44,762 nucleotides of DNA, from the IMG/VR virus record IMGVR_UViG_2541047697_000005, one strand, 5' to 3'. Both the position numbers and the translations under genes were made by a program. This DNA is from a virus (taxonomy: Duplodnaviria; Heunggongvirae; Uroviricota; Caudoviricetes). Position 1 is the stretch's first letter, and every line of letters begins with the position of its first letter. The notes beneath the pieces were generated by a model. That model did not search any database. It worked only from the letters and a program-made list of their open reading frames with translations, and was not told the origin of the DNA. Positions 10,695 to 40,010 of the stretch are shown in pieces.

Positions 10695-10912
10695 CAGAAC
10701 CTCGCCAGCCGGTACCCGGGATGCCCCCGTCGTCGTGTAATCAGAGTCGCAAGGCGGCGCTCCCACTCCTGCCGTCCCTGCCGGATCTCAGATAAGTTTT
10801 CCATGGTCATCTGCTGACCATTAAAAGTGACGGATTTTCCGTCCAGCACCGCCATTTCAGCTTCCGTATAACGCTGAATCATGGCTTCAATATCATTCTG
10901 ATTCATAACCAT
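10694..10912 (-). CDS. Head-tail joining protein W-like
   Basis: 72 aa ending ...TRRRGHPGYRLARF, resembling lambda gpW C-terminus; between terL and portal. Confidence 0.65.
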   Translation of the reverse strand: MVMNQNDIEAMIQRYTEAEMAVLDGKSVTFNGQQMTMENLSEIRQGRQEWERRLATLITRRRGHPGYRLARF

Positions 10913-12015
10913 CCTCCGGAAGTCAGCCAGGGGTTAACATCGTCAGTTACTGTTTTCTTCCGTTTTTGTTTTTTAACAGGCGTGGGTACCGGTTCCGGTG
11001 AGGGTGACGGTTCGGTACTGTCCGGGACACACTCCAGCCAGGTTTCCCGGCTCGCCCACTCCGGTGCATCCGGCCAGCGGATCTTTTCGTATCCATGCAG
11101 AATGACCAGCGCCTCGGCATACACCATCAGGTCAAAAGCTTCGTTGGCACCGCGACCCGGCTTACTCCATTTCCCGTCACTGCTCCGCTCTTCATACGTC
11201 AGTTCGTCGTAAAACCAGCTCCCCAGCCAGTCAGGGAAATGCACATAGCCTGGACCTGGCGAGTCACGCCATAACGCGTTATTCACCCGGTCTTTCAGGG
11301 CATCCGTCTGAAGAAGCCAGAGCGGCACATCACCTGCGGCCTGCGCCCGGCGGCCCGTTCGTCCGGTGTTATCAGGGAATGTACGGCTGATCAGTTTTGC
11401 GCGCCGGATGCTGTCGCCCTTAAACAGGTAAATACGTTTACCAAGGCCATCACGACGGCAACGACGCCAGAATTTATAGGCATTATCAGTGACCCCGTCT
11501 TCACCGCCGGAGTCCACCGCCATTGCCATCAGTCGCATTTGTTGAGAAGGATCGGAGGCCAGCGGCCAGCTTTTATGAAAAACATCCGTCAGCAGGACAT
11601 CCCAGTCTTCCGGATAGCTGGCCGGATCAATTCGCTGGCTCTCCCCGTCGCAGTCACTGCGCAATGACTGCGTGATGTTGTAACGATCAATAATCCAGCG
11701 TTCGCCACGGCTGCCATAGCCCGTTACCTGAACCACAAAACGGCGATGACGTCCCGCCTGCACATCCACTGTCGCCACAAGGAAATTAACGCCATCCGGA
11801 ACACTGCGGGAAGGAACTGGCTCTGCCCGCTGCTCAAGCAGTTCACTTTTTCGTTGCTCCATGCTGGCACGAGGAAGATAAGGCAATCCCCAGTCGGTGT
11901 TGATAACCGCCCTGAGTGTTTCTTCGCTTCCTGTCGCTTCATACTCCTGTTCTGCAGTCAGTAATTTGTAAACCAGTTGCGCCCAGGTCTGATACGCAGC
12001 AGCTGGCCCTTCCAT
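10903..12015 (-). CDS. Terminase large subunit, C-terminal (nuclease) half; gene interrupted by the integrated element
   Basis: 370 aa starting MEGPAAAYQTWAQLV; lambda gpA-like C-terminal region; the ATG lies in the 7-bp repeat at the insertion junction; no ATPase domain in this ORF. Confidence 0.8.
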   Translation of the reverse strand: MEGPAAAYQTWAQLVYKLLTAEQEYEATGSEETLRAVINTDWGLPYLPRASMEQRKSELLEQRAEPVPSRSVPDGVNFLVATVDVQAGRHRRFVVQVTGYGSRGERWIIDRYNITQSLRSDCDGESQRIDPASYPEDWDVLLTDVFHKSWPLASDPSQQMRLMAMAVDSGGEDGVTDNAYKFWRRCRRDGLGKRIYLFKGDSIRRAKLISRTFPDNTGRTGRRAQAAGDVPLWLLQTDALKDRVNNALWRDSPGPGYVHFPDWLGSWFYDELTYEERSSDGKWSKPGRGANEAFDLMVYAEALVILHGYEKIRWPDAPEWASRETWLECVPDSTEPSPSPEPVPTPVKKQKRKKTVTDDVNPWLTSGGWL

Positions 12016-12019
12016 CCAG
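12013..12019. repeat. Left junction core CATCCAG (att core copy 1)
   Basis: Identical 7-mer at 22737-22743; terL homology ends here and AT-rich element DNA begins. Confidence 0.6.
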
Positions 12020-12261
12020 GAAGAAGTAAATAAAAGGTAACTAAATGATTATAAGGTACTATTTAGTTGTAACCCCATCCACATAGTCCAAGATTTAGTA
12101 CCTGCCTAAGCGATAAAAAAAAGAAAAAGGTAGCAATATTAATTAAAAGCTGAATACGCCGCCATGCATTAACACGATGACGCTGCCCGACTGCGCGGCC
12201 TTCTGTTTACCTTCTGGTAGTCTGATTCCGGTGGCACGGCGGATCACGGCGTCGTTCATTA

Positions 12262-12747
12262 TCATGCCTGTTTTACATCCTCATTCACTGCGTCATTTTT
12301 TACCATCCGGCTGATAATCTGATTACACAAATCGTCAATAATTGACTGCACTCTGTTTACTGCCATCGGTTTAAGCCCAGCATCACGTGCCAGAATACTG
12401 GGGAGTTTTTCCAGTTCCTCGCTTACGATTTCCCCCCATATAGCCATCTCTTTTCGCACATCATCGGCGGGTATGAGTTGCGCCGTTTCCTGTTCGAACT
12501 TGAGGCGCTCACGTTCGGACTGATACCAGGCCTTACGGTCGTGTGGCTCCATTTCTTCCAGTGATGCCGGAACGGGAAGATCAAGAAAACAGGTCAGAAT
12601 GTCAGTCACCCGATAGAGTTTCAGCTTGTCATGTCCTCCGGCTGGATGGATATTTTTTAGCCTTGCCGCCGCAGTCTGGCGACATATTCCCGCTATCGCC
12701 GCCAGCTGGTTAATGTTCAGCATCAGATTTTTCAGTTCCCGATCCAT
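12262..12747 (-). CDS. Small terminase subunit (Nu1-like) encoded by the element
   Basis: Start at ATG 12747 (MDRELKNLMLNINQLAAIAGI, HTH-like); KAWYQSERERLKFEQETAQLIP parallels KDWYQSENERIKLEKEQRKLIP of the helper terS at 23735-24274; a cos-like site lies about 150 bp upstream. Confidence 0.7.
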   Translation of the reverse strand: MDRELKNLMLNINQLAAIAGICRQTAAARLKNIHPAGGHDKLKLYRVTDILTCFLDLPVPASLEEMEPHDRKAWYQSERERLKFEQETAQLIPADDVRKEMAIWGEIVSEELEKLPSILARDAGLKPMAVNRVQSIIDDLCNQIISRMVKNDAVNEDVKQA

Positions 12748-12900
12748 ACCCGCTCCAGAATGTTTTAAACATGCATCTTGCAAATATCTTTTAAAAAAGG
12801 TCAAAAAACGCGCCGCATGTTGAACACAAAATAAGCAAAATTAACATACCAAAAATAAAAATACTTAAAATTCAATACAATAGAAAGATGATGATGACGA

Positions 12901-12975
12901 ATGAAAATGCAAAAACTAGCCTTTTTCCGCGCCGCTGCCGCCCCGTGGTAAGGCCACTCCACCGGGAGGACCCGT
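12901..12975 (-). repeat. cos-like site copy 1 (element, upstream of element terS)
   Basis: About 75 bp near-identical to 15438-15511 and 24416-24488; minus strand contains ACGGGGCGGCAGCGGCGCGGAAAAAG, resembling the lambda cos junction as I recall it. Confidence 0.65.
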
Positions 12976-12998
12976 AAAAAAAGGCGGCTATCGCCGCC
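12976..12998 (-). terminator. Rho-independent terminator after element capsid gene
   Basis: Minus strand GGCGGCGATAGCCGCC hairpin followed by TTTTTTT. Confidence 0.55.
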
Positions 12999-13005
12999 CT
13001 TGTTG

Positions 13006-14919
13006 TCATGCTCCACTCGATTTCAGTAGTCCACGATAATCGAGGGCCGCAACACCTGCATCTATGCGCACCTTCCAGGCGACACCATCAACAGTAAAGC
13101 CCTCCTGCTCCTCAAGATATGGCGTATCAATACCATCAAGATAAGCGACCTCTATCGTGTCCATCCCTTTCGCTGCGGCTACATACCACTCCTTGTTATT
13201 GTTCTTATCAAGACGTGGCTCAACAATAACCTCAGCCATATCTTTCACCACGTTAATGATGCCGGGGTTCTGATTGATAGTGCCATCACCATCAACCGGA
13301 AAGAGTGATGACGATGACAGAATGGCGCGATGTGCGGCAGACTCCAGCGCGGCGGGGACCAGGACAAATGCGGGGGTAATATTCAGCGAATCACCGTTAG
13401 CGTCCTCCTGGAGGCGCATCAGCTTACGGGCTTCGTTAAGCCCCTCCATGTCCATATCCTTCGCAATAAGATTTTTATGATCGGCATGGAATAGCGCCTT
13501 ACCATCCGTGAATTTGCCGTTGCCGGTTAACAGGAGATACACCAGATTACCTACTGTTCTGGCGGCTGCACGCCCCATCGCCATGGGGATTGTAGTTAAC
13601 TGGGTCAGGTCATCGTTAATAATGGCCTGGCGGGTAACGGAAAAAATATTCCCGTATGTGGCCAGCGCAATAGGTACGCCTTTATCTCTGGTGGTGATGT
13701 ATTTATATTCCGCACCTTCCGGTACTTTATCCAGCTTTGAAAAACCATTCAGACCAACACGCTTTGCTTCATGAAAGTTTGAAAGCGATCCGCTACGCGT
13801 CCACTTCTGGAACGTTTCGCCGCTGTCCTGCCAGCCTTTCAGAACTGATTTTTCAGCACCACCAGCCAGAATATGAGAAAAATCGCTGCTGCTGTGTGTG
13901 AAAGCTGCATTAACGACCTGCGAGCGATTTAAAAAACCGCCAACACTGATACCACGATCCGTTAGTGATGCCTGGGCCATTTCAAAAAGGCTCATCATCG
14001 CGTAAGGATTTCCCCGCTCTGGGCGTTCATACCCGAGACGAGAATAAAGCCCCTGACGAATTGCATCACCTGTTATGTTCCCGTTACCGGCATAAATATG
14101 AGCCGGGGTATTTTTATTTGATGGCGTGGACTCGCGCCCCATCTCGTTCAACAACTTTTCACGGGCCATCTCCGGTGTACATGATGCATCTTCCAGGCAC
14201 GCCATTTTGATCCCGTCGTAACGACTGCCGAACAGGCTAAACACTTCACTTATTCCGTTGATGCGCTTCTGTTCATTACCAGCAATATTGGCTGCTCCCT
14301 GTGGCGGGGTAATCATTCCTTTAATGGTTTCCGGCATGTGTGAAAAATCTCCTGTGCGTTTCGATTCAATTCGCGCCATTGCTCTGACGGATGGCAACAA
14401 TTCATCAGCAAAACCGTGCTTAAGGCATTCTTTCCCGTCCATCCAGGTTTCATCTTCCAGCATGGCGGTAATTTCCTGTGCTGATTTGCCCGTTTTTCTG
14501 GCATAAGCAGGGATTAACACGGTTTCCACCTTATCCAGCAAATCAGCATAATCACGCATATCACCAGCATTTCCGCCAGAGATACCCCACGGCTTATGTA
14601 TCATCATCATGGCGTTTTCCGGCATCACAACACGATCGCCAGCCATTGCGACAACCGAAGCCATTGAAGCCGCAACACCATCGATATAAACCGTAATTTC
14701 TGCCGGATGATTCCGTAACAGGTTATAGATGGCGATGCCTTCAAACACGTCACCACCTGGCGAATGGATCCGCAGGTCGATATGTGAGACATCGCCCAGG
14801 GCTTTCAGGTCTTCCGCAAACTGCTTCGCGGTGATACCGAAGCCGCCAATTTCTTCATAGATGGATATTTCTGCCGCTCCGCGAACACCCGCCGCCTTAA
14901 TGGTGTACCAGTGATTCAT
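13006..14919 (-). CDS. Second prohead protease-major capsid fusion protein (element copy)
   Basis: 637 aa colinear with the helper protein at 7214-9172; shared blocks include SPGGDVFEGIAI, MIHKP, EKLLNEMGRESTPSNKNTPAHIYAGNGN, RQAIINDDL, TIEVAYL. Confidence 0.8.
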   Translation of the reverse strand: MNHWYTIKAAGVRGAAEISIYEEIGGFGITAKQFAEDLKALGDVSHIDLRIHSPGGDVFEGIAIYNLLRNHPAEITVYIDGVAASMASVVAMAGDRVVMPENAMMMIHKPWGISGGNAGDMRDYADLLDKVETVLIPAYARKTGKSAQEITAMLEDETWMDGKECLKHGFADELLPSVRAMARIESKRTGDFSHMPETIKGMITPPQGAANIAGNEQKRINGISEVFSLFGSRYDGIKMACLEDASCTPEMAREKLLNEMGRESTPSNKNTPAHIYAGNGNITGDAIRQGLYSRLGYERPERGNPYAMMSLFEMAQASLTDRGISVGGFLNRSQVVNAAFTHSSSDFSHILAGGAEKSVLKGWQDSGETFQKWTRSGSLSNFHEAKRVGLNGFSKLDKVPEGAEYKYITTRDKGVPIALATYGNIFSVTRQAIINDDLTQLTTIPMAMGRAAARTVGNLVYLLLTGNGKFTDGKALFHADHKNLIAKDMDMEGLNEARKLMRLQEDANGDSLNITPAFVLVPAALESAAHRAILSSSSLFPVDGDGTINQNPGIINVVKDMAEVIVEPRLDKNNNKEWYVAAAKGMDTIEVAYLDGIDTPYLEEQEGFTVDGVAWKVRIDAGVAALDYRGLLKSSGA

Positions 14920-15125
14920 TGCTCACCCCCAGATGCAAAACCATTCTTATCAAGCCACGCGTTAACTGCGTGTCTGACAATCTGCGCCACACCTGGTAAT
15001 GGTTGGCCAGGATGATGATTTATGTGGTCGATCCTGTACTGCTTAAGGCGCATAACGGTCTGCGCATCCAGATGAACGGAACCACCTCTTACCTCGCCTG
15101 TGTTCAGGTCATTAATACAATTCAC
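14916..15125 (-). CDS. Hypothetical 69-aa protein translationally coupled to the element capsid gene
   Basis: GTG start with AAGAGGAAG RBS; its stop overlaps the capsid ATG; no family recognised. Confidence 0.45.
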   Translation of the reverse strand: MNCINDLNTGEVRGGSVHLDAQTVMRLKQYRIDHINHHPGQPLPGVAQIVRHAVNAWLDKNGFASGGEQ

Positions 15126-15227
15126 AGTAACTTCCTCTTACTGACTAAACTGCGTGCATTATTGATCGATAAAAGTGGTAGATAAACATATTTCTATCAT
15201 AAAAACAGATTAGTCAGATTCAGACAC

Positions 15228-15250
15228 AAAAAAGCCGGAGAAAATCCGGC
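15228..15250 (-). terminator. Rho-independent terminator
   Basis: Minus strand GCCGGATTTTCTCCGGC hairpin followed by TTTTTTGT. Confidence 0.5.
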
Positions 15251-15285
15251 ATAAATATCCCGCCATCTGAACACGTTTTGACACT

Positions 15286-15511
15286 GGCAACTCCACCTGG
15301 CAGGTGAAAAACATATTTATTTATATATTTCAATTAATTACAAACTGGTCTAATGACAGGGCGAAAAAAATATTGTACAGGTGAAAACGGAAATATTTTT
15401 TAATTATCAATAAATTATCACACATGCTGCCGCCGCCATGAAAATGCAAAAACCAGCCTTTTTCCGCGCTGCTCCCGCCCCGTGGCAAGGCCACTCCATC
15501 GGGAGGACCCG
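15286..15511 (-). repeat. cos-like site copy 2 (element), extended ~225 bp duplicate of the helper cos region
   Basis: Near-identical to 24265-24488 including the AT-rich segment and a stub of the terS 5' end (GTGGAGTTGCCAGTGTCAAAACGTG vs helper ATGGAGTTGCTTATGTCAAATGTG). Confidence 0.65.
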
Positions 15512-15512
15512 T

Positions 15513-15534
15513 AAAAAAGCCGGATTGTTCCGGC
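15513..15534 (-). terminator. Rho-independent terminator after ssb
   Basis: Minus strand GCCGGAACAATCCGGC hairpin followed by TTTTTT. Confidence 0.55.
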
Positions 15535-15550
15535 TTCTGTCACTCGTTGC

Positions 15551-15973
15551 TTAAAACGGTATGTTATCCCCGTACGGATCATCATTTCCCGCCTGTTGTT
15601 TTGCCCTGTTCAGCGCGTCAGTAGCCTGGCCCTGCTGGCCTTTTTTGCCGCCCGGTCGCGCCGTTCTCGCACTGATTACGCTGTCTGCGATGACCTGCCA
15701 GCCCTGCCGCGTTTCGCCGTTCTGGCCTGTCCACTGGCTTACCTGCATGTTACCCGCCACGCTCACCAGTTCGCCTTTATGGTGTCTGGCCAGTGCGTCG
15801 GCCTGTCTGCCAAACGCCAGGACGGATAACCACATCGTCGCCGTTCCGTCATCTGCCTGGCTGCACGGCAGGGAAACCGCCATACTCGCCATCGCCATTG
15901 TTGTGCCCTTGCTGGTGGTCTTTAACTGCGGGTCAGCCACCAGCCGCCCGTAAGCCGCTATCTGTGCTGTCAT
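15551..15973 (-). CDS. ssb: Single-stranded DNA-binding protein
   Basis: 140 aa, Gly/Gln-rich tail ending DDPYGDNIPF (SSB C-terminal acidic motif). Confidence 0.75.
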   Translation of the reverse strand: MTAQIAAYGRLVADPQLKTTSKGTTMAMASMAVSLPCSQADDGTATMWLSVLAFGRQADALARHHKGELVSVAGNMQVSQWTGQNGETRQGWQVIADSVISARTARPGGKKGQQGQATDALNRAKQQAGNDDPYGDNIPF

Positions 15974-16227
15974 GCTGTATGCTCTCCGGTTTTAACGTTG
16001 ATGGTTGTCACCTGTTCCGCTTCGGCAATCTCCCGATCTGTCAGCGTGGCAAAGTTTGCCGCCGCTGTGGTCATGAATGCGCTTATCAGTTCGGGATGTG
16101 CTTTCGCGTATCCCTCTCCCGTGTTGCGGTCGATGATTTTTATCGCCATCCTCAGCCAGTGCTCTGTAAGGTCAATGGCGCGGTTATGTGGTTTCTTCTG
16201 ATTGTTAAATTTTCCTGATGTGTGCAT
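15970..16227 (-). CDS. Hypothetical protein
   Basis: 85-aa ORF overlapping ssb start; no family recognised. Confidence 0.4.
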   Translation of the reverse strand: MHTSGKFNNQKKPHNRAIDLTEHWLRMAIKIIDRNTGEGYAKAHPELISAFMTTAAANFATLTDREIAEAEQVTTINVKTGEHTA

Positions 16228-16261
16228 TTTTATTTTTACCCCCCTCGTTTAAAAAGTTTTG

Positions 16262-16505
16262 AGTTGTACCTCCCCTTGTCTACCTTATCTACCTTGCTGG
16301 CCCCAATGCCAGTAATGGCGCGGCTTTCAGCGGGGTAGAGTGCTTTTATCCACTATCTACCCCGTATCTACCTCCCTGTCTGATTCAGGTAAAATCAGGT
16401 AGAGAGGGTAGATAGTAGGTAGATAGTGAAAAAATGCTGTCTACCTAAGTTAATGTACTGAATTAAATGTATTTTCCTTTACTCAGGTAGACAGGGTAGA
16501 CAGCC
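16262..16505. repeat. Iteron array, putative replication origin of the element
   Basis: At least 10 copies of an 8-9 bp unit RGGTAGAYA / TRTCTACC in both orientations, immediately downstream of the primase-helicase gene. Confidence 0.65.
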
Positions 16506-16516
16506 ATTGCAAAAAA

Positions 16517-18271
16517 TTATAAAAACGCGTCGCAATCGTCTGTTGTTATTGCGTTAGTCTGCGTTACCCCCTTAACTTTCCGCGTAATATATTCATGTCC
16601 GTAAACTTTCGCGGCGGGCTTCATAGCCTTGCCAAAGTCATTTACGTTCAGCGGTTTGGTCCTGCCTGCGTAAGCCATAAACGCCAGATAGACACGGTAA
16701 AGGCTGTTCCTGGTTGTGTACTTCACGGAATCACCACCGCCGCCCATCATCAGGCCACGCGCTTCCTCCAGAAAATTCAGGAACTGGCAAAACTCAATAA
16801 CTGGATCCGTTTGCTGCTTTATCGCCAGTGCTTCATCACCGTCACGCTGTTCCAGTAGTAAAGCCCGTGCCTTCTCAGGGTCGGTAAAGTTCGCCAGCAA
16901 TCGGCGGATAATAACGGGGATTTCAGCCGCAATCTTTTCCGGTAGCTCCCTGTCTTTTTCGGCCTCACTGACGATATTGTCGAAACGGAAAATCACGCGA
17001 CGACGTGCCACACCTCCGGCACGTTCGGTGAATATCATCGGGTTGTTGTTGGTCGCCAGCACCACCGCCCTGATTACCGCCGTGAAACGCTTTTCATATT
17101 TCGGGTTAATTTCCACGGGGTCGCCGCCTGTGATTTTCTTGATGCCCGTTCCTTCTCCTGTATATTTCGGCTGGTCAGCCAGGACGATAAGACGACTCCC
17201 GACAACCTGCGCACGTCCACCAGCATCATCAAGCGATGTCATTTCAGCGCTTACCGTGTTCTGTTTCCCTGCCAGAAGGCTGGCTATGTGTGTGAATGTA
17301 CTTTTACCGCTCCCGCCGTCTCCGGTGGCCTCAATAAACATCTGCCAGTCGTACCGGTTCGCCATAATCATGTACAGCGCGGCACATATACGCATCATCT
17401 TGCGCGGGTCTTTTCCGGCTGCGTGCTCAAGCCATTTATGAAAGTTTGGCGCGTTATCGCGGATGTTTTCCCCTGGTGCTGGTAGCGTGTACTCAATGCC
17501 GTTGTGCGTGGTGATCCAGTTCTCCGGCGTGTGCGGGGAAAATTCCCCCGTTTTCAGGTCAAGCGCACCATTGGCGAACGGCAGCAAATCGCCGGACGGC
17601 TCGCCCATTGGTTCGGCAATAACTTTTAACGCTTCCACGGCGTTATTGATTACGCGCTTGCTGAAAGTGGCCCTGTGCTCTGAATAGATCGCCACCATTT
17701 CGCGGCTAAGTTCCATTGTGCTGACCTGACACCATACCCCGCCGCGCCATACGTGAACGATTTCACTTTCAGGATGTACGCAAACGCCATCAAAGCGATC
17801 GGCTAGCAGCTGCGCGCGCTCACTGTCCGCCATCTGCGAAAGTTGCGCCTTTTGCTTTACCGGAAGCTCAATGACCAGACCATCAGAAAGATTCTGGCGC
17901 TCACGGGCCAGATATTCGCGCCAGTTCTGCACCTCCTGGCCGTGCATACCCTCAGGATAAAAATTTGCATCCTGTACGCCTGCCGCCGCCAGCTTCTGAC
18001 CAATCGCCTTTATCATTACTGGCGCAAGATATCCGGCCCTGAATATGCGCACGGATTTTCTGCCTTCCGGCACAATTTGCAGCTTATCCAGTTCGGATAA
18101 CTGCTGCTCCCCAAGCCACACAGGAGGCTCATTATCTCCGGCCATACGCGCGTCATGTTCCTGCCATTGTTTTGCGTGTGACCAGGCATCACTACCCGCA
18201 AAAATAATTACCTCTGTGTCTTTGTTTTTTATTCCGCGAGGCTGTTTTTTTACGTTCGGTGCCAGTTTCAT
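16517..18271 (-). CDS. Primase-helicase (P4 alpha / D5-family)
   Basis: 584 aa with Walker A GDGGSGKST; P4-type primase C-terminal region; adjacent iterons. Confidence 0.8.
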   Translation of the reverse strand: MKLAPNVKKQPRGIKNKDTEVIIFAGSDAWSHAKQWQEHDARMAGDNEPPVWLGEQQLSELDKLQIVPEGRKSVRIFRAGYLAPVMIKAIGQKLAAAGVQDANFYPEGMHGQEVQNWREYLARERQNLSDGLVIELPVKQKAQLSQMADSERAQLLADRFDGVCVHPESEIVHVWRGGVWCQVSTMELSREMVAIYSEHRATFSKRVINNAVEALKVIAEPMGEPSGDLLPFANGALDLKTGEFSPHTPENWITTHNGIEYTLPAPGENIRDNAPNFHKWLEHAAGKDPRKMMRICAALYMIMANRYDWQMFIEATGDGGSGKSTFTHIASLLAGKQNTVSAEMTSLDDAGGRAQVVGSRLIVLADQPKYTGEGTGIKKITGGDPVEINPKYEKRFTAVIRAVVLATNNNPMIFTERAGGVARRRVIFRFDNIVSEAEKDRELPEKIAAEIPVIIRRLLANFTDPEKARALLLEQRDGDEALAIKQQTDPVIEFCQFLNFLEEARGLMMGGGGDSVKYTTRNSLYRVYLAFMAYAGRTKPLNVNDFGKAMKPAAKVYGHEYITRKVKGVTQTNAITTDDCDAFL

Positions 18272-18555
18272 TTCTTACCCCCTGCGACCAGCATTTCACG
18301 GATTTTGCGGATATAGCTTGCTGCACGTTTCTGATTTACGGCTTTACGATGGCCCACCAGCTTAAAATCACGCCGGAACTGATAAACAGGCATCACGCAG
18401 TCGTAGCTGTACCCATCACGGCGGTAAGTAACGCACCGTCCGGCAATACTTTTAATCGTTACCGTGCCGCCGTAGTTATCCCGGAAAATATCGCCGGGGC
18501 GGATTTCAGGCCGAGCGGGGCCGCTGGCAGTAAAGCCAGAAATTTTCTGTTTCAT
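18268..18555 (-). CDS. Hypothetical protein
   Basis: 95-aa ORF, stop overlaps primase start. Confidence 0.45.
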   Translation of the reverse strand: MKQKISGFTASGPARPEIRPGDIFRDNYGGTVTIKSIAGRCVTYRRDGYSYDCVMPVYQFRRDFKLVGHRKAVNQKRAASYIRKIREMLVAGGKK

Positions 18556-18560
18556 GGTTT

Positions 18561-18770
18561 TTATTCCTCTGCGCGGGTCTTGTTGTGTATTTCCATAACC
18601 GCGTTTAATTCATCAATAACCGGGGTTAACAGAGTGCTGAAAGCAGAAAATAAATCCCCCCCCTGTTCGGCATGAACTTCGGTTAATTTAATTAATACCG
18701 CTTTCATTTCCAGTGCCCGATTTAATGCATTCTCAGAATGAATAAGAACATCGAAAGGGATTTCATTCAT
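18561..18770 (-). CDS. Hypothetical protein
   Basis: 69-aa ORF in operon context. Confidence 0.4.
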   Translation of the reverse strand: MNEIPFDVLIHSENALNRALEMKAVLIKLTEVHAEQGGDLFSAFSTLLTPVIDELNAVMEIHNKTRAEE

Positions 18771-18996
18771 GGCTCACCACCTCCGGGAATTTTCTTCTGT
18801 AACGCGCCTCTGCAACATATTCCGCATAGTCCGACGCAATATTGAGAATATCGCTACCCGTTCCTGAATGTTCGGCGGTTTCCAGTAAAAAACATGCAGC
18901 TTTTACCATGTCAGCAACACATAACAGCGCAATATCTGTATCTTCCGGTGCGCCATCAAATTCCTGTTTCAGGGCATTAAAACGATCATCACGCAT
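18763..18996 (-). CDS. Hypothetical protein, possible downstream part of a gene split at a poly-G tract
   Basis: 77-aa ORF whose ATG sits 2 nt after a G12 run; one extra G fuses it with the ORF at 18969-19232. Confidence 0.4.
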   Translation of the reverse strand: MRDDRFNALKQEFDGAPEDTDIALLCVADMVKAACFLLETAEHSGTGSDILNIASDYAEYVAEARYRRKFPEVVSHE

Positions 18997-19232
18997 AACC
19001 CCCCCCCCCCATTTTCACAATCCGTAATCAGGATGGCTTTAGCCTCATTCAGCGCCATATCAGCGGTAAGCTGTGCGTAGGCCAGCGAATGGGGGATTAT
19101 TGCCCCTGTATATTCCGGCTCTCTGGTAATGTGTTTTTCTGCGGTTGCTGCCGTGCATGAAATATCAATCAGCGCGTGCATCAGCGTTCTGATAGCTTCG
19201 GCGGCTGCGTCCTGACGGGGGTTATTGCACAT
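18969..19232 (-). CDS. Hypothetical protein, possible upstream part of a gene split at a poly-G tract
   Basis: 87-aa ORF translating the G12 run as GGGG and ending 9 codons later. Confidence 0.4.
   Translation of the reverse strand: MCNNPRQDAAAEAIRTLMHALIDISCTAATAEKHITREPEYTGAIIPHSLAYAQLTADMALNEAKAILITDCENGGGGLCVMIVLMP
18999..19010. repeat. Homopolymer C12 (G12 on coding strand)
   Basis: 12 consecutive C on plus strand. Confidence 0.95.
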
Positions 19233-19488
19233 GGCGCACCTCCTGACGAATACGGGCGGCGAATACCATCACGCAGCCAGCCGGAGATTGCTGGCGTGCT
19301 TCCTGTTCGCTGGTGGCCTCGATGGTAATCACGCGCGGCTGTGCCGTGCTCAGGGCGATAAAACGCCAGATGTATTTATTCAGGTTGTGCGAGTCCCGCC
19401 CTTGCGGGTGTGTGGTATGATTTCTCATAGCTACCTCGATACGCTTTCTATCGTTGGTGGTTAGAAGCCCTGCGAGTGGTAACGACAC
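19222..19488 (-). CDS. Hypothetical protein (first gene of the element leftward operon)
   Basis: 88-aa ORF starting next to the divergent regulatory region. Confidence 0.4.
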   Translation of the reverse strand: MSLPLAGLLTTNDRKRIEVAMRNHTTHPQGRDSHNLNKYIWRFIALSTAQPRVITIEATSEQEARQQSPAGCVMVFAARIRQEVRHVQ

Positions 19489-19525
19489 TTGCGGGGCTTT
19501 GTCTTTTCATCGATTACCTTAACAA

Positions 19526-19608
19526 AGGTGTCAGCCACTATATTAGTAACAGGTGTCAGCCACGTCAATGGTGTTTTTCCGTTTTCTTGTGTGTATACTG
19601 TCAGCCAC
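19526..19608. promoter_or_regulatory. Divergent regulatory region with three direct repeats GTCAGCCAC and a TATACT -10 element
   Basis: GTCAGCCAC at 19530, 19555, 19600; first two extended as AGGTGTCAGCCAC; TATACT at 19594-19599 abuts the third repeat, 30 bp before the ATG at 19630. Confidence 0.5.
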
Positions 19609-19629
19609 CTAATAACGAGGGAATCCGAT

Positions 19630-19809
19630 ATGGCAACGAAAGCAGTTAATGGAAAATCCAAAAAACTTGAGGCTCGAGTACCCCACGCAATAGCTGACGC
19701 TGTAGAAAATTTAAAGGAAGAAGGCGAAAGCACAGGGCAATTTATCGTTTCGGCACTTGAAGGCGAGATCAAACGCCGCCAGCGTCGCAAGGCCAAAGAG
19801 CAGGAGTAA
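19630..19809 (+). CDS. Small ribbon-helix-helix-like DNA-binding protein, candidate regulator of the element
   Basis: 59 aa MATKAVNGKSKKLEARVPHAIADAVENLKEEGESTGQFIVSALEGEIKRRQRRKAKEQE; ACGAGGGA RBS; downstream of operator repeats. Confidence 0.5.
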   Translation: MATKAVNGKSKKLEARVPHAIADAVENLKEEGESTGQFIVSALEGEIKRRQRRKAKEQE

Positions 19810-19866
19810 CCATCACCAGCGCCGTGGTGCGGTGAACTGTGGCGCACAGGGCTACAGGTATCTACG

Positions 19867-20064
19867 ATGACTGACAAATCATTAAAGAAATTATCTTCAT
19901 CCAGGAAAAAACAACGCAAAAACGCGGTAAGCGAACAAGAACAGGAGAGATTCGCGCCATGTGCGTTTGTCCTTGAGAAGTTCTTAAAAGAGTACAGGCG
20001 CACAAAAATGGGGCTATATACCTGGAAAACATCGCAGCATGGCGATGCTAAAGAGCAGGAATAG
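19867..20064 (+). CDS. Hypothetical small basic protein
   Basis: 65-aa ORF following the RHH gene; weak RBS. Confidence 0.3.
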   Translation: MTDKSLKKLSSSRKKQRKNAVSEQEQERFAPCAFVLEKFLKEYRRTKMGLYTWKTSQHGDAKEQE

Positions 20065-20291
20065 CCCACCAGCAAGCCAGCACACTGATCACATTGCCAA
20101 CCGGATGTAATCACGGCATAGTAATCAGCGCTCATGCGTTGGGGATAACGTGTAGCTTGTGTCGAATGGCCACCGTAGCAGGTGGCCTTTGTTTTGCCTG
20201 TTATCCGGCAATTGTGGCGCTTCTCCACACGGTTGATATAATCCCCCTGCACAGATTCATTTTTTGCGCAGTAGGTTAATTGTTCGCAAGG

Positions 20292-20322
20292 GCGCTCCGG
20301 CAACGGGGCGCTTTTTGTTTTT
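20292..20322 (+). terminator. Rho-independent terminator
   Basis: GCGCTCCGGCAACGGGGCGC hairpin followed by TTTTTGTTTTT. Confidence 0.55.
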
Positions 20323-20480
20323 ACCCACCAGCACAATAAAAATCCTCTTTTCCCATTTTTGTAAAATTTCATGCTTTCCGGACGACTGGCCATATATCTT
20401 TTTTAGCAGAAGATTTTGCCTTGCTGGTTGGTAGCTTCCCGGTCCAACACGATGTACCGTATAATCAGCACTGCGAGTGG

Positions 20481-21059
20481 TTACTGAATACGCTCACCAA
20501 AGTAAAACTCAGGCTGATATTCACGTATCAGCCTTTTTTCTTCTTCCTCCAGCTCACGCTTTTTGCGCTTACAGGCCTGTAGCTCCCTCCCCTTCTCGCT
20601 GGCACTTATCTGATATTGCTCTTTACGGCGAGAAAAATCCTGTAATGCGCCCCACGGGATACCATAAGCCCCCGTTTTTCTGATACCCGGTATCACATTT
20701 CTGAATACCCAGTTACTGAAACGATGAGCAAATGTGCCAGGCGTCGTTGCTTTGCGGCTGCGGGCTATTAGTTTGTAGAAACCTGACTCAGAGATAATGC
20801 TCATATTCTGATTTCCTCCTGGGGTGTAAGTTAAATTTACTCCCTTTTCATCATCATCAAGCATCTGCAACGCCGTACGCGAATTGGTTAGTTCCAGCGC
20901 AGCACAAACATCTTTTGCAACAAACCACGGATCGCCGTTCAGATACACCACACGAACATCCACGCCATCAAAGCGCAGAACGACAAGATCACGAATATCG
21001 CAGAATTTTTTTACTGAACGAGCGTACCCCTTGCCCGTCACGGCAATATTTTTATTCAT
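20481..21059 (-). CDS. Bro-N domain protein (antirepressor-like)
   Basis: N-terminus LVVLRFDGVDVRVVYLNGDPWFVAKDVCAALELTNSRTALQMLDDDEKG matches the Bro-N pattern. Confidence 0.7.
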   Translation of the reverse strand: MNKNIAVTGKGYARSVKKFCDIRDLVVLRFDGVDVRVVYLNGDPWFVAKDVCAALELTNSRTALQMLDDDEKGVNLTYTPGGNQNMSIISESGFYKLIARSRKATTPGTFAHRFSNWVFRNVIPGIRKTGAYGIPWGALQDFSRRKEQYQISASEKGRELQACKRKKRELEEEEKRLIREYQPEFYFGERIQ

Positions 21060-21117
21060 CGTTTTTTACCTCACATACAAAAAACCCCGCATTGCGTGCG
21101 GGGTATGAAAGATATTA

Positions 21118-21321
21118 TTAGTGGGGATTGGCCTGTTCTCGTTGTTTATCTAACCATGCCTCTACATCTCTACGGTGCCAGGTATGCCGCCGCCCAATTC
21201 TGAACGGTTGAGGAAAACCATTATTTTCATCTTTCCAGAAATTGATGAATGCGCTCATTGCCCCATAGCGCAAAATTTTCATTACGTCTTTAGTAAATAA
21301 AATATCTTCATTGGTATTCAT
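21118..21321 (-). CDS. alpA: AlpA-family transcriptional regulator/excisionase
   Basis: 67 aa; MKILRYGAMSAFINFWKDENNGFPQPFRIGRRHTWHRRDVEAWL resembles AlpA; adjacent to integrase. Confidence 0.75.
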   Translation of the reverse strand: MNTNEDILFTKDVMKILRYGAMSAFINFWKDENNGFPQPFRIGRRHTWHRRDVEAWLDKQREQANPH

Positions 21322-21333
21322 TTGCTGAACTCC

Positions 21334-22572
21334 TCAACCATTTACTATTCTCAAACCTTTCTTACCACAGGATCTATTAATTACCCCTTTTCTCGCCTCA
21401 TCAAAAAAATCGCCTACCCATTGCATCATAATTTTGCGTTGTTCTAAATAAGTAGTTCTATTATAAATATCTCTTATTTTATCACCACTTTTATGTGCTA
21501 ATGCAGCCTCAATAACATCAGGGTTAAAACCCTCCTCATTTAAAAGCGTACTCCACATCGAACGAAAACCATGTAACGTTACAATCCCTTTGAACTTGCT
21601 GGCAGCAATTGGAGTATTGATAGTATTCCTCCCCATAGGCGCGTCTTTGGTTCTGGATGAATAGAATACATAACGCCCTCTTTTAATTTCCTGCATTGTT
21701 CTGAGGATGCTAATGGCCTGTGATGACAGGGGCACAACATGTTCACGATGGCATTTCATTTTATGCTCAGGGATAACCCACAGACCAGCATCAAAATCTA
21801 TCTCTGCCCACTCTGCCTGGATCGCCTCTCCAGGCCTGACCATTGTCAATATCTGGAATAAAAGCGCATTGTGAGCTATTTGATACTTATGAGGCACACT
21901 ATCCCACCAACTCAGAAATTCAGGTAATTTTTCTATAGGTAACGCTGCTAATAATTTATTTTTCTTTCCAGTGAATGCTGTCTTTATTTTAAGCAATGGA
22001 TTTATTTTCAATGCACCACAATTTACAGCGTAATTCATAATTTCATTTAATCTTGATATTAATTTTTTTTGCAGCGCGTTTTTATCAGATACGGCATCCA
22101 GTGCCTTAATTGCTAATGGTGCTGTAATTTTATCTATGCTGTATTTACCAAAGAAAGGAACAAGATACTTATATACTTCATATTCGATATTATACAACGT
22201 AGGTTTCCTCAACTCCGATCCTTTTTTAAAAGCGAACCATGCATTAGCAACGACTTCAAATGTCTGTAGATTTTTTAGCGCCATCTCAATTTTACGATTT
22301 TTCTTCTCTGTCACTGGATCAACTCCACGTGCAATCATTCGCCGAAGTTCATCACGTACTTCCCGTGCTTCCGCGAGTGAGAATTCAGGAAAACGCCCTA
22401 TCGTGTATGTCTGCCGTTTCTTCGTTATCGGATGGCTATAACGGAAACGCCACACTTTCCCACCAGCTTTACTCACATTCAGCAATAAACCGAACCCATC
22501 ATAAACGGCATAGTCCTTTTCACGTGGTTTCATTCCCTTAACTTCAGTCACGGTTAATGGCTTTACCGGCAT
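21334..22572 (-). CDS. Tyrosine integrase (P4 / CP4-57 IntA type) of the element
   Basis: 412 aa with P4-int-like N-terminus (GKVWRFRYSHPITKKRQTYTIGRFPEFSLAEAREVRDELRR) and C-terminal catalytic region (HGFRSMWSTLL...); AT-rich; next to the junction. Confidence 0.8.
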   Translation of the reverse strand: MPVKPLTVTEVKGMKPREKDYAVYDGFGLLLNVSKAGGKVWRFRYSHPITKKRQTYTIGRFPEFSLAEAREVRDELRRMIARGVDPVTEKKNRKIEMALKNLQTFEVVANAWFAFKKGSELRKPTLYNIEYEVYKYLVPFFGKYSIDKITAPLAIKALDAVSDKNALQKKLISRLNEIMNYAVNCGALKINPLLKIKTAFTGKKNKLLAALPIEKLPEFLSWWDSVPHKYQIAHNALLFQILTMVRPGEAIQAEWAEIDFDAGLWVIPEHKMKCHREHVVPLSSQAISILRTMQEIKRGRYVFYSSRTKDAPMGRNTINTPIAASKFKGIVTLHGFRSMWSTLLNEEGFNPDVIEAALAHKSGDKIRDIYNRTTYLEQRKIMMQWVGDFFDEARKGVINRSCGKKGLRIVNG

Positions 22573-22733
22573 CTATCGCCCTCATTTTTTAGTCCGTCAT
22601 GTAGTCCTTTCAAGTCGATAACAAGCGATAAACTAACTCATTATCAAGTAAAGAGAGGAAACACCAAAAATCACAACTCATTGAAAAGACTACAAAACGA
22701 CACCAGAACATAAAAACAGGTAAGAAATGTACC

Positions 22734-23726
22734 CTACATCCAGAAACTGGCGATACGGGAGCGGCGCGGTTCACCGGAAACGTTGCCGTTACGATCAATG
22801 ACCTGACCTTCACGCAACCAGACTCCTGCACTATTGAGCTCACGCTTTTTCTCCGCAGTGATAATGCCGCTGCAGTGCGGGCAAAGTAGATACGCCGCCT
22901 CACTGGCTTTAAAGGGATCCGGTTCATTACGGTAGCCGGTCATGGCATCCATAGCTGGCTGAAAATATTCACCGCAGTGCGGACATGGCCAGTACCAGCG
23001 GCGGCGGTCACCACGATTGTAAAGGGAAAGAATACCAGTCGTCGGTGGCGCTTCATGAGGCGACTTACGTCGCCATTTGCTGTCGCAGATGTCACGTCCC
23101 GGCGAGCTCTCCACCAGAGTCATCCCGGCGGACATAAATGTGGTGGTACGTTTTGAGGCCAGGGAGAAACCATCACCCTCGCTGTCGATATTCTCCGGAA
23201 AACGGTCGTAATCGGTTAAGGCGACAAACCGGTAATCCGACGACGACATAATGTTGACCGAGGGCCAACCAATTTTAAGGAACGAGCCATCCCTGAACGT
23301 CTTATCATGGACATTATTGTCGTTACGACGTGGACTCATTCTTTTCTTTACCGCCGCACTGCTTCTGAACGTTCTGTCGAGGCGCTTTTTAGAATGCTCG
23401 CGGGCCTTATCTTCGGTCATCTGCACAACGAGCATGTCCGAAGGATCGCAAACGATGGTATAGACAATCCATCCATCGATCAGACCAATGGTCTTCCCTG
23501 TTCGCGCAGGACCAACAAAAATCACCGCATCGTATTCACGCGATGCCAGGCAGTTCATGGGCTCAATGATGTAGGGTGTCAGTTCAGGATCCCATGGCAC
23601 CGAGTTACCAGCCCCCTTGGGAACACGCATGAATTTTTTAACAGCCTCCGAAATCGGCATGCGACGTGGTGGGGAAAATCCTGCCGATATGTCCCTTCCC
23701 AAATTTCGGGCTGATGAAAAACCCAT
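22734..23726 (-). CDS. Terminase large subunit, N-terminal (ATPase) half; gene interrupted by the integrated element
   Basis: 330 aa with FVGPARTGKT P-loop, WPCPHCGEYF and LLCPHCSGII motifs paralleling lambda gpA; ends ...RIASFWM followed by stop in element-derived sequence. Confidence 0.8.
   Translation of the reverse strand: MGFSSARNLGRDISAGFSPPRRMPISEAVKKFMRVPKGAGNSVPWDPELTPYIIEPMNCLASREYDAVIFVGPARTGKTIGLIDGWIVYTIVCDPSDMLVVQMTEDKAREHSKKRLDRTFRSSAAVKKRMSPRRNDNNVHDKTFRDGSFLKIGWPSVNIMSSSDYRFVALTDYDRFPENIDSEGDGFSLASKRTTTFMSAGMTLVESSPGRDICDSKWRRKSPHEAPPTTGILSLYNRGDRRRWYWPCPHCGEYFQPAMDAMTGYRNEPDPFKASEAAYLLCPHCSGIITAEKKRELNSAGVWLREGQVIDRNGNVSGEPRRSRIASFWM
22737..22743. repeat. Right junction core CATCCAG (att core copy 2)
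   Basis: Identical 7-mer to 12013-12019; terL N-half reading frame terminates (TAG) 1 codon into element DNA. Confidence 0.6.
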
Positions 23727-26464: not shown

Positions 26465-26735
26465 GATGTTACCGTAGTATGTGAGTATCCATCGAATAGA
26501 CACCAAGCAAAAAAGCTCCCGAAGGAGCCTTCATTTTCACTTTTTTAAATCCAACGACAGACGGCTGGCATTTAAGTATTGTGAAATATTATCAAATGTA
26601 ATCATCATTGATTTACAAAAGATACATTTTGCCCCGAAAGGATTCATGTCAGAAACATCAAAAGATGATGTTCTATACTGGGAACCATGACAACACGGGC
26701 ATCTAAAGTGAATATGGTTTGTAATATTGTCTACC

Positions 26736-26948
26736 TCAAAGCGCCACTACATGAACAGCGGCAGGACCTTTAGGTCCGTTCTCAATACCAAATTCAACTT
26801 CCTGATTCTCAGTTAATGTTTTGAAATCGTTGCTCTGAATTGCTGAGAAATGGACAAACACATCTTTGCTGCCATCTTTCGGCGTGATGAAACCAAAACC
26901 TTTTTCAGGGTTAAACCATTTCACTAAACCAGTCATTTTGTTAGACAT
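26736..26948 (-). CDS. cspI: Cold-shock protein CspI-like
   Basis: [53 protein letters not shown]...: cold-shock domain with RNP motifs; long 5' leader. Confidence 0.85.
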
Positions 26949-27316
26949 AATTATTACCTTTTGAAGAAATTAGCCCTTGGGCAGAATGGTCCGAAAAAAA
27001 ATATCAGAGAGAAAAACCAACAAGGAAATCTCAAGAGGTACAAATAATAAAATTATAACAATGACTGCTTCAGATAAATTTGTAACAAACCAGAACACCA
27101 TTAACGCATGATTAACCACCCATAGCAAGGATTACTTTTGTAAAGAAAAACACAGCAATGAAAGAATAGCTTTATTTATTAATAAAACGTGTCATTCTGA
27201 TTAAGACCTTTTATCTTACCCTTAAGATTTCAGGAATTTTGACTCATGGAAGAGTCCTTTTTATTTAAATTTTACATTCAGCGATGTAAATGTTCCGATT
27301 TAATATTACCCTACAT

Positions 27317-29338: not shown

Positions 29339-29619
29339 GAGATTGTGGTGCTTTTTGTGGGAGTCATCCACTTACGCACTTTGTTTTGCCATGCCAGCAG
29401 TTAGCTTCTGCTGTAAAACTATTCATGCAGCAAACCTGCACTTCACCACAATGGTTAGCATACTTTTCCTGATTAAGATTTTGCCAAATATGCTGGCCAT
29501 TGTTTCATGTATTGGACCTCCTTAAATTTTATTAAAGAAATCCAATATTCACTACTCTGTCCGTATCTCTACTCAGGCATCAGCCTTCTTCGTTATCGTA
29601 TACAGACGAGCGATGAATT

Positions 29620-29835
29620 TTAATCAGTAATGATGACATTTGCTGCTGCAGGACCTTTAGCACCACTCTCTATAGAGAAGGTAACCTTTTGACCTTCAAA
29701 TAAGGTTCGATAATTATCATTCTGAATCGCAGAAAAATGCACAAACACATCTTTACTACCATCAACAGGAGAAATAAAGCCGAAACCTTTATCAGCGTTA
29801 AACCATTTTACTAAACCAGTCATTTTATTTGACAT
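29620..29835 (-). CDS. cspB: Cold-shock protein CspB-like
   Basis: [67 protein letters not shown]... Confidence 0.85.
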
Positions 29836-30135
29836 TCTACATTCCTTAACTTGAGCCTTTCGGCATAAATGGTTTGCATAACAGAAACGACTTCGTACTT
29901 AATTGGAGAGACTCAAAGAAGGAATAAGTGAATAACACCTGAAATGAGAACTGCTTTAGTAAACTACTTCGTATATCGTCTGTTCTTCAAACCGACGCAA
30001 TCATTAACGCATAGTTGAACATATGAAGCAATGTTTATTTTAGACATCCAGCCATCTTCAACCCCATCAAAAAACTATAGCTTTCTTCAGGAACGTGTGT
30101 ATAGTGCGCCAAGTTATCAGTATTAAGGAATTTTT

Positions 30136-33399: not shown

Positions 33400-33555
33400 T
33401 TACTCCTCAGGTTCGTAAGCTGTGAAGACAGCGACCTCCGTCTGGCCGGTTCGGATTCGTACCTCGCAGAGGTCTTTCCTCGTTACCAGTGCCGTCACTA
33501 TGACGGTTAAACAGATGACGATCAGGGCGATTAACATCGCCTTTTGCTGCTTCAT
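33400..33555 (-). CDS. hokD: Hok-family type I toxin
   Basis: MKQQKAMLIALIVICLTVIVTALVTRKDLCEVRIRTGQTEVAVFTAYEPEE; upstream leader has long inverted repeat typical of hok mRNAs. Confidence 0.85.
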   Translation of the reverse strand: MKQQKAMLIALIVICLTVIVTALVTRKDLCEVRIRTGQTEVAVFTAYEPEE

Positions 33556-34058
33556 AGCCTGCTTCTCCTTGCCTTCCGGCACGTAAGAGGCTAACCTACA
33601 TGTGTCTAGCATGAAATTGGCCTCAGATTAATGTTAAGCGTCTTGCAGGACGCGTAATGTTAACTGGGGCTTTTCTCTATCTGCCTTTGGTGTTCATGCC
33701 CGAGGCAGATAGCCTCAAGCACCCGCAGCCATTCTACTTAACTACCTTTACCTCGCCAATATGAAATCAGTCAGAAAGGCGATCCATAAGAACAATAGCA
33801 AGACAATAAATTGCCATTACAGCCGCAATAGCCAGCGCACACTTGAGAACCAGCACGACAACCTCCTGTATTGGACGTACACCAGTCCTGATAAATATGA
33901 GGCGGCCTCTTAAGTGATTCAATACAACTATTAGGTATAATTAGTCAGATTTTTTCTGTGGAAATGGGACATTACAACCTATCGCCACCAACAATTGAGA
34001 CGCTAATCGCCCCATCTCGTAACCTTATCCAAAACGGGGCCTAAATCATGGCAATTGA

Positions 34059-39954: not shown

Positions 39955-40010
39955 TTTCTGGTGACGTTTGGCGGTATCAGTTTTACTCCGTGACTGCTCT
40001 GCCGCCGTTT
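39955..40010 (+). ncRNA. dicF: DicF small RNA
   Basis: TTTCTGGTGACGTTTGGCGGTATCAGTTTTACTCCGTGACTGCTCTGCCGCC followed by GTTTTT matches DicF as I recall it; terminator-like hairpin; located between ydfB/C and dicB. Confidence 0.85.

Follow-up and report, generated by a model that had tools for sequence, protein, structure and literature searches.

The window, meaning the whole 44,762-nucleotide stretch of Caudoviricetes DNA analysed here (IMG/VR record IMGVR_UViG_2541047697_000005), holds a prophage with an island of about 10.7 kb embedded in it. The island (~12016-22740) lies within the gpA-type large terminase gene of the prophage, with junctions near 12012-12022 and 22735-22745; the gene thus lies in two minus-strand pieces, one for the ATPase domain (22737-23726) and the other for the nuclease domain (10906-12015). 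Since the island splits the prophage terminase gene with CATCCAG at both junctions, across which the terminase frames rejoin as ...SFWM followed directly by EGPAAA..., it is classified on its sequence as a Gram-negative PICI of the helper-embedded subtype (HE-PICI), described as being made up of integration, Bro, replication and late zones (Tommasini et al., PMC10111431). The expected genes (int, alpA-like, Bro-N, primase, SSB, ClpP-capsid fusion and DUF1441) are all found on the minus strand; a rightward RHH gene or operators are not mentioned in PMC10111431. The features used below are the following, in order of position:

12262-12804, minus strand: DUF1441 protein
13006-14919, minus strand: ClpP-capsid fusion
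16517-18271, minus strand: D5/P4-type primase
18268-18555, minus strand: DUF4222
19222-19428, minus strand: Icd-like putative cell-division inhibitor, first gene of the leftward operon
19464-19508, plus strand: conserved hairpin and T-tract, an intrinsic terminator, antisense to the leftward operon and ending about 20 bp before O1
19528-19538, plus strand: putative operator O1, GTGTCAGCCAC; its extended form AGGTGTCAGCCAC begins at 19526
19540-19568, minus strand: predicted leftward promoter PL (-35 TTGACG at 19568-19563, 17-nt spacer, -10 TAATAT at 19545-19540)
19553-19563, plus strand: putative operator O2, GTGTCAGCCAC; position conserved in related loci
19594-19599, plus strand: predicted -10 element TATACT of the rightward ylcI promoter PR, with a T-rich tract upstream
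19598-19608, plus strand: putative operator O3, CTGTCAGCCAC; position conserved in related loci
19630-19809, plus strand: ylcI, 59 aa, predicted RHH repressor, YlcI/YnfO family by NCBIfam (E = 4e-17)
19867-20064, plus strand: ORF2, 65 aa, phrog_21027 (unknown function), co-oriented with ylcI
20481-21059, minus strand: Bro-N anti-repressor-like protein
21118-21321, minus strand: AlpA-like protein
21334-22572, minus strand: integrase (tyrosine)

Three small ORFs on the minus strand lie between the icd-like gene and DUF4222. The DUF1441 protein is, we infer, the equivalent of a small terminase, because its gene directly precedes that of the terminase large subunit, here as well as in the copy belonging to the prophage. 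The ClpP-capsid block is flanked by an 81-nt direct repeat (12901-12981 and 15438-15518; 94% identical), which may either mark a past capture of late genes or be a regulatory element present twice. On the other side of the control region, ylcI and alpA/int are separated by a mosaic zone, with 23 unrelated ORF clusters in 73 loci; transcription coming from the int/alpA/Bro-N side would cross ylcI in the antisense direction and enter the operator region. Between ORF2 and the Bro-N gene, some 400 bp (20065-20480) contain no convincing gene and carry strong terminator-like hairpins on the plus strand (20168-20187 and 20288-20315); weak, sub-threshold Rfam matches to isrD and SpF41 in this interval fall mainly on terminator-type hairpins. 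The 3' ends of ORF2 (20035-20066) and ylcI (19780-19811) share 78% identity, both ending in ...AKEQE-stop, and one related Escherichia coli locus (L176) encodes a YlcI of 101 aa in which the basic tail is present twice; these likenesses look like scars of a recombination that exchanges specificity modules.

An earlier note on this DNA, made from the letters alone, had described a triple direct repeat in a divergent control region. Its 9-mer GTCAGCCAC is found on the plus strand precisely at 19530, 19555 and 19600, within a shared 10-nt unit, TGTCAGCCAC, that occurs exactly three times (19529, 19554, 19599; spacings of 25 and 45). The first two copies are longer, as the note had said (AGGTGTCAGCCAC at 19526-19538 and 19551-19563, 25 bp apart), and the third indeed abuts, and overlaps, the TATACT element, the ATG of the small gene following 30 bp after it. 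The functional unit is here taken to be an 11-mer of the form (G/C)TG-N5-CAC. In two related site families, O1 reads as the reverse complement of the other two sites; the unit is therefore a pseudo-palindrome with GTG...CAC flanks and not a purely directional repeat, so that "direct repeat" fits it only in part.

The unit is short, and this is the only point in favour of a chance repetition or a recent local duplication devoid of function. In a set of 300 first-order Markov sequences with the length (44.7 kb) and composition of the window, one contained any 9-mer present three times without overlap within 100 bp, and in the window itself such triplets are seen only at O1-O3 and at an iteron set in the prophage (37138-37240). 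A fourth exact copy of the 9-mer, at 15932 (GGGTCAGCCACC), is probably fortuitous, since the TG flank is absent and the site lies within the SSB coding sequence. As the position of the three sites is conserved and their core changes jointly across genera (see below), the probability left to an accidental origin is next to nothing. The prophage set consists of CATTTTGA(C/A)C repeated four to five times within a 339-aa ORF on the minus strand (36624-37643), and is read, by analogy with lambda, as origin iterons inside an O-like replication-initiator gene, with no unusual features.

The note's divergent control region is borne out by promoter motifs on both sides. A consensus scan calls PL, a predicted sigma-70-like promoter which, as with all promoters given here, is a motif match; an A-rich stretch lies upstream of it on the minus strand. 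From its position, PL would drive the genes from icd-like through primase, and the leftward operon placed by the note on the far side of the repeats is indeed there, with the icd-like gene first behind PL. O2 fills the upstream part of the PL spacer and overlaps the -35 element by 1 nt, and O1 begins 1 nt downstream of the -10 element and covers the predicted leftward transcription start (near 19533). On the rightward side, TATACT and O3 precede ylcI; PR was not called by the scan, as it has no good -35 element. The placement of O3 on PR is the mirror image of that of O1 on PL, covering the predicted rightward start (near 19606), and the first two bases of O3 are the final two of TATACT. Several related sites thus overlap the -35, -10 and +1 elements of predicted divergent promoters beside a regulator gene, as is expected of an immunity switch.

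This arrangement was followed through 174 loci with relatives of YlcI (from species genomes, metagenomes and IMG/VR) and four stretches from complete E. coli genomes. The repeats are not absent from homologous elements, the outcome that the earlier note had named as fatal to its reading: the three-site layout stands at the same positions in about 170 loci from Escherichia, Xenorhabdus, Pectobacterium, Serratia and others, and no informative locus departs from it. The distances are 22-25 bp between O1 and O2 and 45-46 bp between O2 and O3 in 47 of 48 non-redundant loci from at least seven genera, the exception (L010) being a mis-called O2. The order is likewise kept: O1, O2, the leftward -35 TTGA, a T-rich stretch, then (G)TATAC(T) fused to O3. 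On the plus strand, O2 is directly followed in related loci by GTCAA, TTCAA or CTCAA, the complement of the -35 TTGA, which almost all of the related loci listed retain (exceptions include L129, with TTAA, and L154); (G)TATAC(T) is kept at the PR -10 position in most of them. While the pattern used to find sites required TG and CA and left positions 1 and 11 of the 11-mer free, these free positions nonetheless show a conservation of 88% or more in O1 and O2. At O3, position 1 is C or T rather than G in 45 of 46 related loci; O3 is thus probably a weaker candidate site than O1 and O2, which suggests a homeostatic autoregulation. The module is common in E. coli, where the 211-bp control region matches 1226 of 5426 complete genomes, 403 of them over its full length.

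What varies between elements is the N5 core, the sites of any one element carrying the same or a nearly identical core. The core is TCAGC in the window and Xenorhabdus, TGGCC in Pseudocitrobacter and the model island EcCICFT073, AATCG in Pectobacterium and AACAC in Serratia and Rouxiella; TC(G/C)GA, TCTTA, TTGAA, GGA(A/T)T, GGCAC, ACGGA and AAATA are found in other loci.

The protein encoded beside the sites belongs to a compact family, with 93 representatives at 50% identity among 1.84 billion proteins, and no second homologue of it was found in the prophage of the window. PHROGs lists the family as being of unknown function; for YlcI/YnfO/DUF3950, the literature searched holds only accessory-gene listings, and neither NCBIfam nor PHROGs gives a function. 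The YlcI of the window has no match in Pfam at E values up to 10, no relative in a PDB sequence search and no significant hit when its model is submitted to Foldseek. An AlphaFold2 model of the monomer, based on 25 homologues and a single chain, has a pLDDT of 88.9 and displays an extended N-terminus, a helix (19-28), a G-E-S turn and a second helix (35-58). The protein can be divided into a predicted DNA-reading β-strand at about 11-17 (KKLEARV), which does not appear as a strand in the monomer model, helix A (19-28), the turn G32-E33-S34 and helix B (35-58), which bears an invariant EIKRR motif (EIKRRQR in 24 of 25 aligned sequences). These are the features of an RHH protein: a strand-helix-helix fold of about 45 residues, a strand of alternating polar and hydrophobic residues (K12-L13-E14-A15-R16-V17-P18, with R16 invariant) and a G-x-S/T/N turn (G32-E33-S34-T35, invariant or nearly so).

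In Arc, Q9, N11 and R13 are the base-contacting residues. Alignment by hhalign sets residues 9-32 of YlcI in register with residues 6-29 of Arc (E = 8.6e-4, probability 23%), which puts K12, E14 and R16 on Arc Q9, N11 and R13; CopG is also aligned. None of the curated RHH models (Pfam RHH_1 etc.) matches YlcI at its gathering threshold; the 25 homologues give one match to RHH_1 (E = 0.009), three to CB_ParB_C and two to PSK_trans_fac, all below threshold, the latter two being families that we take to be of RHH type. The RHH-like nature that the note had ascribed to the small gene is thus supported by the predicted structure, with its helices and turn, and only weakly by sequence. A terminator-like site on the minus strand (19685-19668) falls within the codons for the β-strand and was set aside as a by-product of coding.

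The strongest link between the protein and the sites comes from their joint variation. Sixteen variants of the YlcI β-strand (residues 9-18) correspond to a dozen or more operator cores, among which are the following pairs of strand and core:

KKLEA, TCAGC
KRFDV, TC(G/C)GA
QALKA, TGGCC
QSVTA, TCTTA
QTIAA, TTGAA
QKLQA, GGA(A/T)T
QKMSA, GGCAC
QQLNA, AATCG
LQVSV, AACAC

Given the core, the conditional entropy of residues 11-19 is zero, and helix positions vary within an operator class; the positions most informative about the core are 14, 12 and 13. Taking a pair of loci as concordant when strand and core are either both the same or both different, 994 of 1035 pairs of non-redundant loci agree, a count that ignores kinship among mosaic relatives, although the analysis gains from the loci being mosaics. 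Pairs that disagree have either substitutions at core-facing residues (F/I13 and A/V15, for instance) or sites that vary by a single base. Where the helices are at least 80% identical and the strands different, the operators differ in all 14 pairs. The rule is not perfectly one-to-one, as K12/S14 occurs with two different cores and, in the QALKA group, O3 has the core TCCCC versus TGGCC in O1 and O2. Operator and DNA-reading element of the regulator thus change together between types, as those of an immunity switch do.

This raises the question of whether another product of the neighbourhood could be the partner of the sites, be it the Icd-like protein, AlpA acting as an excisionase, the integrase on arm sites, Bro-N, or the primase on origin iterons. 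P4-type primases bind short iterated sequences, which counts for the last of these, and PHROGs tags the Icd-like family (phrog_6196, phrog_1743) as "transcriptional repressor". Natural swaps between elements speak to each of these candidates. Core and YlcI strand both differ from those of the window in L033, where Icd is 94% and ORF2 91% identical to the window's proteins, in L054 (Icd 95%, primase 86%) and in L086 (Bro-N 96%, Icd 93%, DUF4222 89%). Conversely, Xenorhabdus islands, with a YlcI that is 75-79% identical overall and has the same β-strand as the window's, carry an identical operator; no homologue of the window's Icd, ORF2, Bro-N or AlpA is detectable in them, and their integrase is 25% identical. 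Elements whose primases are about 52% identical share the window's core, so that primase identity and core do not go together (86% with a different core, about 52% with the same one), as they should at iterons of a replication origin; moreover, in Gram-negative PICIs the origin is reported to lie downstream of pri (PMC10111431), and the sites overlap promoter motifs. The core, as judged from these comparisons, tracks YlcI and not the Icd-like protein, primase, Bro-N, AlpA or integrase, and the swaps therefore exclude the other neighbouring proteins as its partner; that one of them binds the sites is accordingly given very little credence. The Icd-like protein in particular was ruled out as the repressor acting at O1-O3 by the swap test and, since that test gives no support for its binding there, the PHROGs label is doubted and may have been inherited from older annotation of immunity regions.

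YlcI could also be an RHH antitoxin forming a type II toxin-antitoxin pair with ORF2, the repeats being merely its autoregulatory operator. However, most related loci, among them all those of Xenorhabdus, Pectobacterium and Serratia, lack ORF2 while the three-site layout persists, so that a conserved toxin gene directly downstream is not found among related loci; ORF2 belongs to no family of known function, and O3 alone lies on the ylcI promoter, O1 and O2 being on the opposite one. As it is not conserved across the family, ORF2 is not a required part of the module, and the toxin-antitoxin pair is highly improbable.

Finally, the repeats might act as RNA, in the manner of P4 seqA/seqC or the P1 c4 a/b elements, an immunity RNA pairing with the leftward transcript and blocking it. 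Related satellites do have RNA immunity at the equivalent position, immunity RNAs being reported in some Bro zones (PMC10111431), and the icd-like gene comes next, as in P1. Rfam finds no C4 or isrK in the control region, either over the whole window at gathering score or over 19000-20600 at E values up to 10, and no reverse-complement copy of the repeat with at most one mismatch occurs within about 4.5 kb. An inverted O1, as seen in relatives, suits a pseudo-symmetric DNA site and not antisense pairing, and the core tracks a protein strand. RNA immunity of the P4/P1 type, for which neither C4/isrK nor another credible RNA was found in the control region, was dropped and seems to us extremely improbable.

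The reading that we favour, and in which we place considerable though not full confidence, is that O1-O3 are the cognate operators of the adjacent YlcI/YnfO-family protein, a predicted RHH repressor. One RHH dimer would bind each 11-bp pseudo-palindrome GTG-N5-CAC, the invariant Arg16 reading the invariant flanks and the variable, outward-facing residues of the strand, mainly 12 and 14, reading the N5 core. Occupancy of O2 (spacer and edge of the -35 element) and O1 (-10/+1) would shut PL and with it the icd-like gene, the small ORFs and the primase, and occupancy of the weaker O3 (PR -10/+1) would limit transcription of ylcI itself. Upon entry into a naive cell, PL and PR would fire, YlcI would accumulate and the replication operon would be silenced; the module would thus be the immunity or establishment switch of the satellite. 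During induction by a helper, an AlpA-dependent promoter or a late operon of the helper could read leftward across the operators; such read-through, antisense to ylcI, would bypass PL and disturb ylcI expression. Read-through is favoured as the route to derepression because EcCICFT073 and the Xenorhabdus islands have no anti-repressor gene between alpA and ylcI, a highly mosaic zone: in neither is a Bro-N gene present there, and the Xenorhabdus islands have no rightward gene other than ylcI, which is directly followed by a convergent alpA-like gene and int. An obligatory role of Bro-N as anti-repressor was rejected on account of this absence, and Bro-N is kept as a possible accessory that may add a second route of derepression in some elements.

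The main alternative is that YlcI binds the sites and nevertheless serves another role, as a Cro-like early regulator, as an activator of either PL or PR, or in autoregulation only. There is a single regulator gene for three sites, PR has no -35 element and might need activation, and AlpA alone suffices for induction of the model island (PMC6092414). The positions of O1-O3 on the predicted PL and PR are, however, typical of occlusion and not of activation, and two of the three sites are on the leftward promoter rather than on ylcI's own; we regard such other roles as unlikely.

EcCICFT073 itself possesses the same module (L178, 8440-8870; NC_004431.1, about 1380440-1380870). The order is int, alpA-like, a convergent gene annotated as ylcI (YlcI/YnfO; 1380473-1380652), then the divergent operon from icd-like through pri; the sites are GTGTGGCCCAC, present twice, and CTGTCCCCCAC, and the strand of its YlcI is KSQALKARVP. 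Overexpression of AlpA alone induces this island, AlpA being the inducer in Gram-negative PICIs, and the global repressor is called "unclear" in the same work (PMC6092414); no repressor of Gram-negative PICIs was found in the literature searched. As published induction requires only AlpA, YlcI may be dispensable for the control of induction, which is the role that the earlier note had proposed for the repeats; more probably, the module represses an internal promoter in the service of immunity or establishment, and AlpA-driven read-through can bypass that promoter.

The predicted module shares features with several known systems and departs from each of them. Like Arc and Mnt of P22 (immI) and other RHH repressors (CopG, omega of pSM19035, AmrZ, PutA), YlcI would be a small β-α-α protein, its N-terminal strand in register with Arc Q9/N11/R13, that recognises short pseudo-symmetric sites on core promoter elements, with the adjacent gene placed for autoregulation; as with omega, the sites occur in direct or inverted orientation. 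It differs from them in falling below the Pfam RHH thresholds, within a separate uncharacterised family with EIKRR on a long second helix, in having three separated 11-bp sites instead of adjacent half-sites or heptad arrays, and in being hosted by a phage satellite. RHH repressors with short operators are thus already known; the YlcI/YnfO family, its operators and the specificity table are new in the literature and libraries searched.

Among satellites, the Gram-positive SaPIs are controlled by a master repressor. As with Stl/Rpr of these Gram-positive PICIs, the regulator gene is divergent from the replication/packaging operon and placed between the integration and replication modules, and the predicted YlcI would keep the island quiescent. 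Stl proteins are, by comparison, larger HTH repressors inactivated by helper-phage proteins, whereas YlcI is a 59-aa RHH protein without an obvious sensor domain; Gram-negative PICIs are induced via AlpA (PMC6092414), no anti-repressor is known for YlcI, and an adjacent Bro-N is present in only some elements. The immunity of P4 (PLE/PLL, CI RNA) offers a likeness in position, between the alpA/Bro zone and the primase operon, and, as we propose, in logic, an internal early promoter being silenced after establishment and an upstream activated promoter reading through; the proposed effector here is a protein on DNA operators, in contrast to the RNA that acts on the nascent transcript in P4. With the tripartite OR of lambda CI/Cro (PRM/PR), the module shares three related sites between back-to-back promoters and immunity-type-specific operators that covary with the DNA-reading element of the repressor. 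It has, however, one RHH regulator where lambda has two HTH proteins; a LexA-like cleavage domain is missing, and the sites are non-contiguous, with other spacings.

More tentatively, and as a proposal somewhat more apt to fail than to hold, the YlcI/YnfO proteins could be the missing master or immunity repressors of many Gram-negative PICIs, EcCICFT073 included, with a dozen or more non-cross-reacting specificities, a code relating strand residues 12-15 to the N5 core that is legible from sequence, and perhaps a cis-antisense layer over the toxic icd-like gene. The analysis provides Gram-negative PICIs with a candidate for the missing repressor, YlcI/YnfO with a concrete predicted role and three mapped candidate operators, and a natural table of strand-core specificities for a module that is present in the experimentally tractable EcCICFT073. 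If true, it would explain the silence of the islands and how cross-talk between related islands in one cell might be avoided, and would yield small, potentially orthogonal repressor-operator pairs for engineering.

The cis-antisense layer refers to the terminator on the plus strand between the start codon of the icd-like gene and O1, made up of a hairpin proper (19464-19500) and the T-tract that follows it. Its fold is more stable on the plus strand in 50 of 51 distinct homologues, and G.U pairs number 123 on that strand versus 28 on the minus strand; RNAalifold, applied to 37 sequences, returns 23 pairs, 16 of them with compensatory changes, together with a small upstream stem-loop. In this stem-loop (19437-19453), either the loop or the 5' flank, depending on the type of element, is complementary, by eye, to the Shine-Dalgarno sequence of the icd-like gene. 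Upstream of the hairpin, a TG-n-TAnnnT motif, TGGTATGAT (TG-n-TATGAT, 19412-19420), lies within coding sequence and occurs in two different coding contexts. No Rfam family matches the RNA that could arise here (19000-20600 searched at E values up to 10). Taken together, the plus strand of 19412-19508 suggests a candidate cis-antisense RNA of about 80 nt (from about 19427 to about 19508) over the ribosome-binding site of the icd-like gene, its 3' end being at the terminator.

In the prophage, Rfam matches two cspA-type thermoregulator leaders, the sok antitoxin RNA and DicF, the matches lying at 26709-27094, 29604-29996, 33550-33724 and 39956-40007; we take them to be typical cargo of lambdoid or Qin-like E. 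coli prophages.
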